Shown piece after piece: positions 24,001 to 30,000 of a stretch of DNA of 64,000 nt. A program made the position numbers. The stretch is taken from assembly GCA_036339995.1 (NCBI GenBank), contig JAYYZW010000039.1, positions 35,852 to 99,851 of the forward strand, given 5' to 3'. This stretch comes from Pseudomonadota bacterium (GTDB taxonomy: Bacteria > Pseudomonadota > Gammaproteobacteria > Ga0077536). Within the stretch, counting starts at the first letter, position 1. The number at the start of each line of letters is the position of its first letter.

Positions 24001-27000
24001 GGGTGGCACGGCACATCGAGATGATCCAGGATCCAATCGTACAACGGCCGATGATCTTCGAATTCGAGCGTGCACAAGGAATGCGTTATGCCCTCCAGTG
24101 CATCAGACACACAATGCGTATAGTCGTACATCGGGTAGATCTTCCATTGTTCACCCGTGCGGTGATGAACAGATTTCCGAATGCGATACAGCGTCGGATC
24201 GCGCATGTTGATGTTAGGCGAGACCATGTCGATCTTGGCGCGCAACACATGAGCACCTTCGTCGAATTCGCCATTGCGCATGCGTTCGAAGAGATCCAAG
24301 TTTTCTTTGACTCCGCGGTTACGATATGGACTGTCGCGTCCGCCCTCGGTCAAGGTGCCGCGGAAATGCCTGATTTCGTCCGCCGTCAGACTATCCACGT
24401 ACGCCTTGCTTGCTGATATCAGGCCGCACGCGTAGGCATACAATTGTTCGAAGTAGTCCGACGCGTGAAATAAGCGATCCTCCCACGCAAATCCCAACCA
24501 CTTCACGTCTCCCTTGATCGCATCGGCGTATTCTTCGCTTTCCTTGTCCGGGTTCGTGTCGTCAAAGCGCAGATTGCAGCTACCTCCATAATCCAAGGCG
24601 GTACCGAAGTTAAGGCAGATGGACTTGGCATGCCCTATGTGGAGGTACCCGTTCGGTTCCGGAGGAAACCTCGTTGCGACGCGGCCACCGTATTTTCCGT
24701 TATCCTGGTCGGAATCGATGATGCCGCGTATGAAATTGATGGATGTTGGCTTGGTTGTGGAATTCATTGTCGTCGGCTCGCGGCATGCACTAAGGTCCGT
24801 CGCCCTTCGTGAGTTTGATCTAGCTCAAAACCGTATTGGAATCATTCCCAAAAACCCGGGCAGGTCGCTGCGGGACAATTTCGAGACGAAATCAGATTTA
24901 AACTGCTATGCCGGCGATCCTTTTGGGTCTGGCGAATGGCTCGACCAAGGGCGGCGGATGCCACAATAATGCGGTAAATCGTACGTTCGGCGCAACGATC
25001 GTATACCGATTCGAACTACCCGTAGGTGCGATTGGGCCTCGCTACCGAGCCAGGTGCGCTTGAACCGCGCTTTTCAGGAAGTCTTGATCGAGCGCCTTCG
25101 GGCGACGAGCAAAGCCTTGGCGCGCGCACTGACTTAAGCAGCCTATTGCTGCGCGTCTCGAGCGCGCGCGCGGGCGATTCCTTTAGCTGTCCGCAAATCG
25201 GGCATAACCCACGAAAGTCCATACCACGGCCATCATCACCAGGCTCAGAAATACCGCGGCCGCAGCGAGGTCCTTGGCGCGCCCCGAGAGTTCATGGGGC
25301 TCCTCACTGACGCGATCAGTGAGTGCTTCGACACCCGAGTTCAGCAGTTCCGTGATGAGCACGATGAAAAGCGATCCGATCAAAACAGCATAGTCGAGCG
25401 GGCCGCGTCCAACCCAGAATGCGAGCGGCAACATGACGGCGGTGAGCATCGCTTCCTGTCGAAAGGCTTCCTCGTGCTGCCATCCGGCGCGCAGGCCCTT
25501 GATGGAATAACCGAATGCCTTGATCAGGCGATTGATGCCGCGAAGGGGGGGGGCCATGCCTGTATCTCCTACACCGTAAACCTGGCGGCCTGAGGCGTGC
25601 GTTTGCGCGCGATTCCCCAGCCGATTCGCGCGCAAGCGCGCTCCTACATCCTAAACCACACCACCGCAGGAGCGCTTGTGGGCGAATGGCGGTTTGTTTT
25701 TCGGAAATAACTGTATATAATTACAGCTGTACGTTCAAGCAGGTGTATTGTGGTTACGGGTTTGACAGCGCGGCAGGCGGAAATCCTGGCCCTGGTTCGC
25801 AGGGAGATTCAGCATACGGGAATGCCGCCGACCCGTCTCGAAATTGCCGAGGCCCTGGGATTCCGCTCGCCGAATGCCGCCGAAGAGCACCTGCGGGCGC
25901 TTGCCCGTAAAGGCTATATCGAATTACTTCCCGGGGCGTCCCGCGGGATCCGTATCGCCGGAGACGCATCGCTCCAGGCACTGGGGCTGCCGGTGGTGGG
26001 GCGAGTGGCCGCAGGTCATCCCATACTCGCTGCCGAACATATCGAAGACCATCATGCAGTGGACCCGGATCTGTTCAAGCCCCGTGCGCATTACCTGTTG
26101 CGCGTACGCGGCATGAGCATGCGCGACGCCGGTATTCTCGATGGCGATCTGCTGGCAGTGCATGCCAGCCCGGAGGCGCGAAACGGTCAGATCGTCGTCG
26201 TGCGTCTCGAAGACGAAGTCACGGTCAAACGTTTCAAGCGGCGTGGTAAGCGCGTGCGTTTGCTGCCGGAGAATCTGGATCTCGAACCCATAGAAGTCGA
26301 TCTCAGATACCAGGAACTCGTCATAGAGGGTCTCGGGGTCGGCGTGCTCAGAACACATCCTCAATGAACCTGCAGGATTTGATGCGACGTGCCGATGTCT
26401 GGCGCGCCGGGGAGATACCCCCTGCTTCCGGCTTGAGCACGGGCTTTGAGGCCTTGGACGGCAGCTTGCCGGGAGGTGGCTGGCCACGCTCGGGACTCAC
26501 CGAAATCCTGTCGGCGACGCCTGGTATCGGTGCGCTGAGGCTGGTACTGCCCGCGCTTGCCAAGCTCAGTTACGACGGGCAGTGGATCATATGGGTCTGC
26601 CCGCCCTACATCCCTTATTCCCCGGCCTTGATCGAGTACGGCATGGATCTCGCCCAGGTCTTGGTCGTCGATTTATCCGATCAGCCGAATGCGTTGAAAG
26701 AGCAGACCCTGTGGGCTTATGAACAGGCTTTGAGATTCCCCGATTGCGGTGCTGCCCTCCTGTGGATCGAGGATGCCGCAGATCTTCACCTGCGCCGTTT
26801 ACAGCTCGCCGCCACGGCCGGCCGTACCTGGGGCATCGTGTTTCGCCCCGAACGGTTCGGAGCTCACCCGTCCCCGGCCCCGCTCAGACTGGGCCTAGCC
26901 CGGGAGGCCGCCGAAGAGCAGCGTGATGCATTGCAAGTGACGGTCCTCAAAGCGCGCGGCGGGCAGGGCGGTACACGTCGCCGGATCGCATTGTGACTGA

Positions 27001-30000
27001 AAAGCACTTCCAAGGAGAATAAGCGTGCGAGCGTCCAAGCCCTGCGAACCCCTGCCGCGTGATTTCCATGGCAGGCGAGCGACACGCCCTGCCACGGGGT
27101 ATGTGCCCGGGCACAAAAACGTCCATTCGGCGAATGCTTCCACAGCCGGCGCGCTCTGGCTTCACCTGCATCTGCCGCAGCTTCCACTGGAGGCATTGAC
27201 CCGCGGGGTCGCGACACAACGCGCCTGCGTGTTGACCGCAGGGGAGGGCAGCCGCCGGAAAGTCTTGATGGCTAATACCCGCGCGGCGGCGCTCGGTATA
27301 CGCCCGGGCATGCCGCTCGGCGCCGCGCATGCCTTGGGCGAGGTGACCGTGCTCGCGCGCAATGAACGTGCGGAACACCAAGCGCTGGACAAGCTTTGTC
27401 TGTGGGCGTTGCAGCTGAGTTCCCAGGTCAGCGCGGTACCGCCCGATGGGCTGGTGCTGGAGATCAAGGGCAGTCTCAGGCTGTTTAAGGGAATGGACGG
27501 TTTGTTGAGCCATCTGCGCCATGGTCTCAGGGGGCTCGGTTACCGGGTGCAGCATGCGGTGGCGCCGACGCCGATGGCCGCGGCCTTACTGGCGCGTTCA
27601 AATTCCCGTGCGATCGTTTTGGCGGAGCAGGATCTGATGCAGCACCTGTCACCGCTACCCATCGAAACCCTGCGCCTGGAAGTGCGCCACAGGGAGGCAT
27701 TGGAAAGCATTGGCGTCAGGTGTATCGGTGATTGTCGCCGCCTGCCGCGCGACGGCCTGGCGCGCCGTTTTTCACCCGTATTGAACGACATGCTGGATCG
27801 CCTCTTCGGACGGGCGCCCGATCCCCAGCCGGCTTTTTCCGTGCCCCGGTGTTTCGAAGCAGCACTCGACCTGCCCTGGGAACTCGACAACGCGCAGGCG
27901 CTCATCGTCGCGGGGGAACGCTTATTGCACGAATTGGTCGGGTATCTGAGAGGGAATGCGACGATGACGCGCCATCTGCGATGGCGGCTCATCGGTCGCG
28001 ACAATTCCCATACGTGTTTCGAAGTCGGGCTCACGCGGCTTGGCCGGGATTTCGATCACATGTGCCTCTTGCTCAGGGAAACACTGATGCGCATGAATCT
28101 GAAGGTGCCGGTGCGTGCCATCGAACTTTACGTGGATGACATCGTGCGCGGGATGTCGCCGTCTACGAGCGACTTGTTCTTGGAAAGAAACCATCAGGAT
28201 GAGGAAGCTTATGCGGTGTTCGTCGATCGATTCCGTTCGCGTTGTGGTGCCCGGGCACTGCGCGGACTGGAGCTGAAATTCGATCATCGTCCTGAACACG
28301 CATGGTGTTGGCGGTATCCGGACGATGGAAAACGCAGCCCCCCCCCAGGGGCGGTGGCTTCCAGCCCTTTCGGTGCCCGGCCATTGTGGCTGGTAAAGCA
28401 CCCCATGACACTCACGACTCGACATGGGTACCCGGAGTTCGACGGGCCTTTGCAACTGGTTCCCGAGCGCGAGCGGATTGATGCTGGCTGGTGGGATGGG
28501 CATGCAATAGCGCGCGACTATTTCATAGCGACCACCACGAGAGGAAGCCGTTTGTGGATATACGAGGAACTCGGCGGAGAGCGGTGCTGGCGCCTCCATG
28601 GAGTTTTCGAATAAGTCTCTAACAACCTGTCAATTCGGAAAGCACGAAGCCGAGCGTAACAAGCCAAGAATCGAAATCAAGATTCTATTTGTTGCGATCC
28701 CCGACCTTTCACCCCCAAGGCCTCGTACTTTGTGCTTTCCGTCTTTTTTATTTCCAGCGTGACGCGGTAACGGCTCGGTTCGTTGCTGAATCACGCAACA
28801 AATTCCTGACCTCAAGCTTCTTCCAACTATCCGGGGCGCCGAACCAAGCCAGACACGGCGAGCGATTTTAAGTTTCTCGCTTCGTAGTTTGTGCTTTATA
28901 CCCCCTCCTGGTTTGAGGTTTAGCCTCACTGCAACTTCGTATAGCAATGGCTATAACTTTGCGCCGCCTCTAGTGGTTTCGTACTCGCGCGAGCTTTCCA
29001 TCTATTCGCTTGGGTGATGTTTTAACCCTCCGGATGGCAAATCCGGAGGGCAAAATTTTCGTATGGAGCCGAGGAGATCACCGCTATACCTAAATTGCCC
29101 GACTACTGCAAGCCGTCGACTGGCGGAATATTGTTTTTAATGTGGAATTTAAATTAACTATCTGACAAATGTCACGAAGAGGTTATAATCCCTAGTGCTG
29201 CATCAAAGGGGGGACGAACGAGCAATGCGTGCATTCGTCGATTCAGTGTCCAGAATCAGGCTCTAATTGATCATGAAAGCCACGGAAATCAACGACTTAT
29301 TGCCGTTGCGCAACGCCAGTTTCGACACCCTTGTCGAGGCCTTGGAGTACGCGGCAGAGGGTCAGACCGGGTACAACTTCTACGATGGTCGCGGCGAATT
29401 ATACGCTGTGTTGAGCTATCGAGAGCTCCGGGACGAAGCTCGGATACTCGCCAGGCGCCTGCTCGGACTGGGGTGCAAGCGCGGCAGCCGGGTCGCGGTC
29501 ATCGCCGAAACCGAGCCCATGTTTCACCGATTTTTCTTCGCCTGCCAGTTTGCCGGATACATCCCGGTGGCGTTGCCCGCAGGATTTCAGCTCGGCGCGC
29601 GTGCGGCCTATGTCGAACAGCTCGAACGCATGCTTGACAGCTGCAGCGCGGATATCGCGGTGGCTCCGGAATCTCATATCGGATTTCTCAAACAAGCGGT
29701 AGAACGGCTTGATCTCGTGAAGGCGGGGACACCTGAGGAATTCGACAACCTGTCCGAGTATGACATCGAACTCGAACCCCTGCGCGCCAACGAAATAGCC
29801 TACCTGCAGTACACTTCCGGAAGCACGCGTTTCCCGCGCGGCGTGGAGATTTCTCAACATACCGTACTGACCAATCTGCGCGATATCGCGACGCAAGGCC
29901 TCAAGATCACGCGGCAGGATCGTATGGTCGCCTGGTTGCCGCTTTACCACGATATGGGCCTGGTGGGTTTCGTCCTGTTGCCGCTGGGCAGCCAGCTTTC

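Follow-up and report, generated by a model that had tools for sequence, protein, structure and literature searches.

Organization of the lexA-imuA-imuB Locus

We analyzed a 64-kb stretch of contig JAYYZW010000039.1 (assembly GCA_036339995.1; Gammaproteobacteria, Ga0077536), hereafter the window, focusing on an SOS operon composed of lexA, imuA and imuB, that is, the gene of the SOS repressor followed by the two accessory genes of the imuABC mutagenesis cassette, whose remaining member is the gene of the error-prone polymerase DnaE2 (ImuC). An earlier reading of the same DNA (the original prediction) had proposed a lexA-imuA-imuB operon without an adjacent dnaE2, preceded by tandem abutting SOS boxes, the first of them perfect, ahead of a GTG-started lexA, with a divergent dgkA as neighbour and an AT-rich junction of about 650 bp before a group of lipid genes. 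These elements are either directly legible in the sequence or supported by homology searches, and their coordinates are collected in Table 1.

Table 1. Features of the lexA-imuA-imuB locus and its flanks (positions within the window)
Feature	Position	Strand	Description
dgkA (diacylglycerol kinase)	25183-25557	-	Pfam DAGK_prokar 4e-33; divergent neighbour, outside the operon
Putative sigma-70 promoter	25694-25721	+	TTGTTT-16 nt-TATAAT, read from the sequence; -10 hexamer within SOS box 1
SOS box 1	25711-25726	.	CTGTATATAATTACAG; CTGT-N8-ACAG, perfect palindromic core
SOS box 2	25727-25742	.	CTGTACGTTCAAGCAG; 7/8 core bases; abuts box 1
lexA	25750-26367	+	205 aa, GTG start; cleavage site A88-G89, Ser123, Lys160
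imuA	26364-26996	+	210 aa, RecA/SulA-like accessory protein; start overlaps the lexA stop by 4 nt (ATGA)
imuB	27025-28614	+	529 aa, GTG start, 28 nt after imuA; Y-family polymerase homologue
Intergenic junction imuB/lipid operon	28615-29266	.	652 bp, 48% GC vs 59% in the window; operon boundary
Promoter of the lipid operon	29162-29189		CTGACA-16-TATAAT; conserved in the clade; strong promoter-like site

The product of lexA scores 239 bits (2.8e-71) against the equivalog model TIGR00498, for which the cut-off is 111, matches the Pfam domains LexA_DNA_bind and Peptidase_S24, and shares 64% identity and the same recognition helix with E. coli LexA. In the alignment to the E. coli protein the Ala-Gly cleavage site, the Ser/Lys dyad and VKR are conserved, so that the N-terminal winged-helix domain, the cleavage site and the catalytic dyad of the S24 peptidase are all present; moreover, the lexA start aligns with an ATG or GTG in the relatives. 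The window LexA can thus be assigned to the canonical E. coli-like type, and the traits of the P. putida type (a divergent LexA and a non-canonical operator) are not found at this locus, as the boxes also follow CTGT-N8-ACAG.

ImuA exceeds the cut-off of the equivalog model NF033429 (ImuA_translesion; 1.2e-56, 191.5 bits against 150), while ImuB matches Pfam IMS (1.6e-8) and has homologues of 40-65% identity that are named 'protein ImuB' by JGI, and so the identities first proposed for both proteins hold in profile searches. Single-sequence phmmer searches of ImuA and ImuB against the PDB gave no matches, and only a profile search reached the structures of E. coli Pol IV. In this alignment of the ImuB-homologue profile, Asp103 of Pol IV corresponds to a Leu and Glu104 is conserved. 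Asp8 is located immediately ahead of the aligned part and, by extension, falls in the HLHL stretch of ImuB, where there is no Asp. With two of the three catalytic acidic residues lost in the profile alignment, ImuB would be unable to polymerise, and is probably a catalytically dead protein. It has nevertheless kept every residue that is invariant in DnaE2-linked ImuBs, including the DLF motif, which presumably binds the clamp, and 22 invariant positions in the last 80 residues, and combines a Y-family fold lacking two of the three catalytic acidic residues with the C-terminal ImuB-C extension. An exact look-up of the 529-aa ImuB returned no match; those of ImuA and LexA did.

In addition, ImuB carries an N-terminal extension of about 43 residues (27025-27153) ahead of the conserved LWLHLHLPQL start of the Y-family fold, the sequence of which is not conserved in the relatives. 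Upstream of the LWLHLHL block, a GTG at 27103 is the one alternative in-frame start, and the strong AAGGAG site belongs to the long form.

Regarding the operon structure, the 4-nt overlap of lexA and imuA and the strong ribosome-binding site of imuB were both correctly called beforehand, the latter being an AAGGAG at 27012-27017, 7 nt ahead of the GTG of imuB. Within lexA-imuA-imuB, neither a promoter nor an SOS box nor a terminator was detected, and the three genes form one compact transcription unit, for which co-transcription is predicted.

Absence of dnaE2 and Layout of the Cassette among Relatives

The absence of dnaE2 next to the operon was likewise confirmed. No open reading frame (ORF) of at least 900 aa occurs in the window, the three largest ones being enzymes unrelated to DnaE2, and tblastn searches with three DnaE2 proteins against the window and the flanks of its clade relatives returned nothing better than E = 0.19, with no dnaE2 remnant. 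One protein considered as a possible linked DnaE2 (P0207) was discarded, as it belongs to an unrelated complete cassette. Another DnaE2 homologue (P0129), of 1498 aa, contains intein/LAGLIDADG Pfam domains and represents an intein-containing error-prone polymerase.

The layout was then compared across 80 loci from species-representative genomes, which were fetched with an ImuB profile (among the matches listed, the closest being 56% identical) and typed by BLAST, counting a LexA as canonical when it was at least 50% identical. A canonical lexA lies directly upstream of imuA in 52 loci, and a divergent LexA (35-36% identity; L012 and L050) in two. As for the polymerase gene, dnaE2 is adjacent to imuB in 46/80 loci and 0.8-9 kb downstream in seven, while in 22 loci it is missing from a downstream flank of 3.5 kb or more; 14 of these 22 display the exact lexA-imuA-imuB layout. 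The original prediction had taken both the fusion of the cassette to a canonical lexA and the missing adjacent dnaE2 as unusual traits. However, the former turned out to be the commonest arrangement in the sample, and the latter is shared by the loci just mentioned and agrees with the split cassettes of the literature (PMC3919608, PMC3901139).

The closest relatives of the window repeat its arrangement. Same-species metagenomic contigs have an identical layout, and the other members of the clade extend over a wide range of ImuB identity to the window: 91% in L096, 76% in L092, 75% in L089-L091, 61% in L095 and 58% in L094, the last on a 5.7-Mb circular contig. This clade and L009-L011 form a monophyletic group in a neighbour-joining tree of ImuB, and are uniformly without an adjacent dnaE2. 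Their sister group shows mixed states, with dnaE2 adjacent to imuB (L017), 3.4 kb downstream (L015) or split from it (L019, L027). Locus L027 belongs to CP070738.1, the complete chromosome of a gammaproteobacterial metagenome-assembled genome (MAG), in which lexA-imuA-imuB is found within 0.988-1.010 Mb and dnaE2 stands alone within 2.154-2.169 Mb, 1.15 Mb away, with a perfect SOS box (CTGTATATATTTACAG) 12 nt upstream of its start. The detached dnaE2 genes of L015, L059 and L071 also have a perfect box about 20 nt upstream of the start. No alternative partner gene was found to recur downstream of imuB in the split loci, where only unrelated genes are present. Four of the MAG records (L011, L035, L039, L078) are labelled 'Klebsiella pneumoniae' or 'Bordetella parapertussis', and their cassettes cluster with those of environmental gamma- and betaproteobacteria; the labels look wrong.

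lexA, imuA and imuB are intact in every clade member, and the ratios of nonsynonymous to synonymous substitution (dN/dS) within the clade are low: 0.11-0.21 for lexA, 0.19-0.57 for imuA and 0.16-0.33 for imuB. The three genes are therefore being maintained rather than decaying, and selection on imuA and imuB is purifying. When the window is compared with L096, the genes that flank the operon (dgkA, acyl-CoA synthetase and aminotransferase) show a synonymous divergence of 0.18-0.32, and lexA, imuA and imuB one that is two to four times smaller (0.065-0.125), possibly owing to codon constraints or to a recombination event.

The Double Operator Upstream of lexA

The gap between box 2 and the lexA GTG measures 7 nt (gtgtatt), and box 2 overlaps the lexA Shine-Dalgarno AGGTG; the placement of this box just upstream of lexA had thus been rightly described, but its distance had been given as 8 nt. 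Relative to the lexA start, the boxes begin at -39 (box 1) and -23 (box 2). Apart from box 1, the window contains no perfect CTGT-N8-ACAG, and boxes with one mismatch occur in it at the rate expected by chance (13 found, 11.6 expected). Among 2000 Markov-simulated 64-kb sequences, a perfect box paired with one of at least 7/8 at a distance of 15-21 bp was seen in only 0.1%, and at exactly 16 bp in none. A further 7/8 box at 28627, just 3' of imuB, was set aside as a chance match, in line with that background rate, and is not conserved in L096.

All clade members (L096, L089-L092, L094, L095, L009-L011) have boxes at -40/-39 and -24/-23, 16 bp apart and with zero spacer, whereas in relatives beyond the clade the boxes are spaced by 17-21 bp or a single one is present. 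Which box of the pair is perfect differs by species: it is box 1 in the window and box 2 in L096 and L089. Box 2 is perfect in L095, L009, L010 and L011 as well, and both boxes are so in L010 and L095. The abutting boxes are therefore genuine and conserved, and represent a mildly distinctive, minor variant of the classical double operator of lexA; the zero-spacer 16-bp register is specific to the clade, conserved within it, and the only mildly new point of the locus.

The putative lexA promoter scores under the threshold of a consensus promoter scan and is proposed from its sequence, together with the recurrence of a TTG-N19-TATAAT/TATACT register in the relatives. Taken together, two conserved boxes directly upstream of lexA, covering the predicted -10 hexamer and the 5' untranslated region, form a double operator of the E. 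coli type, and would place the cassette under LexA (SOS) control.

Junction with the Downstream Lipid Genes

The region between imuB and the following genes matches the AT-rich junction that had been described, both in length and in its lower GC content. Its first part (5', about 480 bp) is a variable spacer, and the remaining 170 bp or so (3') contain the promoter and the conserved leader of the lipid operon. The cluster at 30975-36690 comprises genes for an epimerase, an acyl carrier protein (ACP), a class I/II aminotransferase, a CDP-alcohol phosphatidyltransferase and a metallophosphoesterase, with lptF/lptG next in order. As the cluster is syntenic throughout the clade, it belongs to the core genome and is not an island. 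Moreover, the gene order glnS ... dgkA / lexA-imuA-imuB / acyl-CoA synthetase-epimerase-ACP-aminotransferase was found in each of the clade members examined, including those with an ImuB identity as low as 58-61%, and L009 (56%) has an acyl-CoA synthetase (AMP-binding) gene directly 3' of imuB. A junction shared down to such a low identity must be ancient in the clade. The original suggestion that dnaE2 was displaced by a sphingolipid island is thus contradicted by the comparison of relatives, as well as by the lack of any dnaE2 remnant.

Several additional observations concern this region. The leader, of about 75 nt, that follows the promoter at 29162-29189 and precedes the acyl-CoA synthetase/ACP/serine-palmitoyltransferase-like operon is highly conserved across the clade. 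Its hairpin GACGAAC...GUUCGUC remains paired in L094 and L095 although the sequences differ there, and the leader is a candidate cis-regulatory RNA of the lipid operon (29100-29266). An Rfam scan of 24700-29400 gave no match. In L092, the same intergenic region has an insertion at approximately 11860-12250, flanked by 24-bp inverted repeats (GGGGCTTATATACATGACTAGACA) and an 8-bp duplication (TTAAATTA) and containing an ORF for a hydrophobic protein of 121 aa, which looks like a small mobile element. Further away, the window contains two paralogous genes of about 800 aa (44252-46666 and 47738-50095), with Laminin_G_3 and a C-terminal domain similar to the N,N-dimethylformamidase beta subunit.

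A Probable Split Mutagenesis Cassette

Based on these results, we consider it probable that the SOS mutagenesis cassette (imuABC) is split in this genome and that the locus represents its regulator-plus-accessory half. The gene of DnaE2 most likely lies at a distant site with an SOS box of its own in front, as is seen in related genomes. A catalytically dead ImuB that keeps the region binding DnaE2 and ImuA in mycobacteria (PMC6511836) makes a partner polymerase encoded at another site the most economical expectation.

In the mechanism that we propose, two LexA dimers would occupy the operator, one at box 1 over the -10 TATAAT and the other at box 2 over the transcription start region and the ribosome-binding site, and so block both initiation and the early transcript region. 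Upon DNA damage, the RecA filament would induce LexA self-cleavage at A88-G89 through Ser123/Lys160, and the operon would be derepressed. lexA and imuA are likely to be translationally coupled, with imuB next on the same transcript. ImuB would then dock on the beta clamp via its invariant DLF motif, while its conserved C-terminal domain would bring together ImuA and DnaE2 for error-prone lesion bypass. Fresh LexA translated from the same mRNA would restore repression, and ImuA and ImuB would hence be expressed in a pulse.

Some results weigh against the proposal of a split cassette. dnaE2 is absent not only from the operon but also from the 25 kb upstream and the 35 kb downstream of it, as well as from the 10-kb flanks of all clade members, and so far it has not been found for the source organism or for any member of the clade. 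Two database searches for DnaE2, with a single sequence and with a four-sequence profile, yielded among the best 120 of 8000 scored candidates no protein on the clade contigs of 2.59 Mb, 1.24 Mb and 5.7 Mb, although the DnaE2 identities form a flat plateau at 63-70%, so that a lower-ranked dnaE2 could be missed. Moreover, no intrinsic terminator was found after imuB (a hairpin at 29022-29046 was rejected as such, for it is not conserved in L096), and LexA binding, co-transcription and the promoter are predictions.

In an alternative reading, the clade lost dnaE2 altogether, and ImuA and ImuB were kept for a DnaE2-independent role, for instance to bring a different polymerase to the clamp or to slow replication as a non-catalytic brake induced by the SOS response. 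The whole monophyletic group (window, L096, L089-L095, L009-L011) lacks dnaE2 within 10 kb, none appeared on the megabase contigs of the clade in either search, imuA and imuB nevertheless evolve under purifying selection, and cassettes 'with members missing' are mentioned in a review (PMC3901139). However, a gene ranked below the best 120 would have escaped both searches, the sister lineage L027 has the same layout and a dnaE2 elsewhere with an SOS box, and no other partner gene recurs 3' of imuB in the split loci; in addition, ImuB keeps the whole C-terminal region that in M. tuberculosis binds DnaE2 and ImuA (PMC6511836). We therefore regard the loss of dnaE2 as unlikely. A bolder version appears quite unlikely: a family-level clade of marine and sediment Gammaproteobacteria without any DnaE2, in which ImuA and the dead ImuB would either partner a different polymerase or serve as a damage checkpoint bound to the clamp, and in which the zero-spacer operator might give unusually tight, cooperative repression by LexA. 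If it were true that the clade is DnaE2-less, the question would arise of what ImuA and ImuB do without their polymerase.

It could also be argued that this lexA is a second, cassette-dedicated paralogue comparable to lexA2 of P. putida, the master SOS repressor being encoded at another locus. Cassettes of the form lexA-imuA-imuB-dnaE2 with a second lexA at their head are known (P. putida; PMC3901139), and the related loci L012 and L050 have a divergent LexA, only 35-36% identical to that of the window. We find this very unlikely, as the window protein itself is close to E. coli LexA in overall sequence, in its recognition helix and in its equivalog score, the canonical boxes are arranged as at E. 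coli lexA, and a LexA of this same type heads the cassette in 52/80 relatives. The genomic context points in the same direction: dgkA, whose product was given 124 aa by gene callers in the same-species contigs, adjoins lexA in E. coli K-12 too, which is in line with the earlier argument from the divergent dgkA. Lastly, despite the length and lower GC content of the junction, the chance that the locus is a decaying remnant, left by a recent deletion of dnaE2 or its displacement through insertion of the lipid cluster, is close to negligible, given that relatives down to 56-61% ImuB identity share the junction and the genes after it, that tblastn detected no dnaE2 fragment, that no member of the clade has a disrupted copy of any of the three genes (dN/dS 0.11-0.57), and that the conserved promoter and leader of the operon that follows make up the 3' part of the junction.

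Overall, the locus is a real but ordinary operon, predicted to be inducible by DNA damage, with a layout that is common and already described among related bacteria: dnaE2 is detached in roughly one in four of the related genomes sampled. With this locus, an uncultured marine lineage of Gammaproteobacteria joins the many bacteria known to have a LexA-controlled imuAB(C) mutagenesis system, which has little import beyond annotation. Nevertheless, the 16-bp LexA operator register without spacer could be used for studying cooperative LexA binding.

Comparison with Known Systems

At the operator, the window resembles E. coli lexA in having two LexA boxes just upstream of the gene, the proximal one ending 7-8 nt before the start codon, but the start-to-start distance is 21 bp in E. 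coli and 16 bp, with no spacer, in the window. Overlapping double SOS boxes, which accommodate two LexA dimers side by side, are known from colicin genes (PMC2994835), and a similar paired placement of the dimers is predicted here.

With regard to gene content, the lexA-headed imuA-imuB-dnaE2 cassette of Proteobacteria (Abella 2004 and Erill 2006, in the account given by PMC3901139 and PMC3919608) shares with the window the order lexA, imuA, imuB, the SOS box in front, an ImuA equivalog and an inactive Y-family ImuB with ImuB-C; it differs in its dnaE2, which the window operon lacks and which is not present within 35 kb downstream. The cassette of P. putida is further set apart by its divergent LexA2, as opposed to the canonical E. 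coli-like LexA of the window. In the literature, LexA-regulated cassettes are 'contiguous or split' (PMC3919608), and almost every configuration is said to occur, including incomplete ones (PMC3901139). In M. tuberculosis, imuA'-imuB and dnaE2 occupy separate LexA-controlled loci (PMC6511836, PMC3901139), and the C-terminal region of the mycobacterial ImuB binds DnaE2 and ImuA (PMC6511836). The window would be alike in keeping the accessory genes together and the polymerase gene detached, its own dnaE2 being presumed, although the mycobacterial operon has imuA' and no lexA. In CP070738.1 the lexA-imuA-imuB arrangement is identical to that of the window, and dnaE2 is located 1.15 Mb away behind a perfect SOS box.

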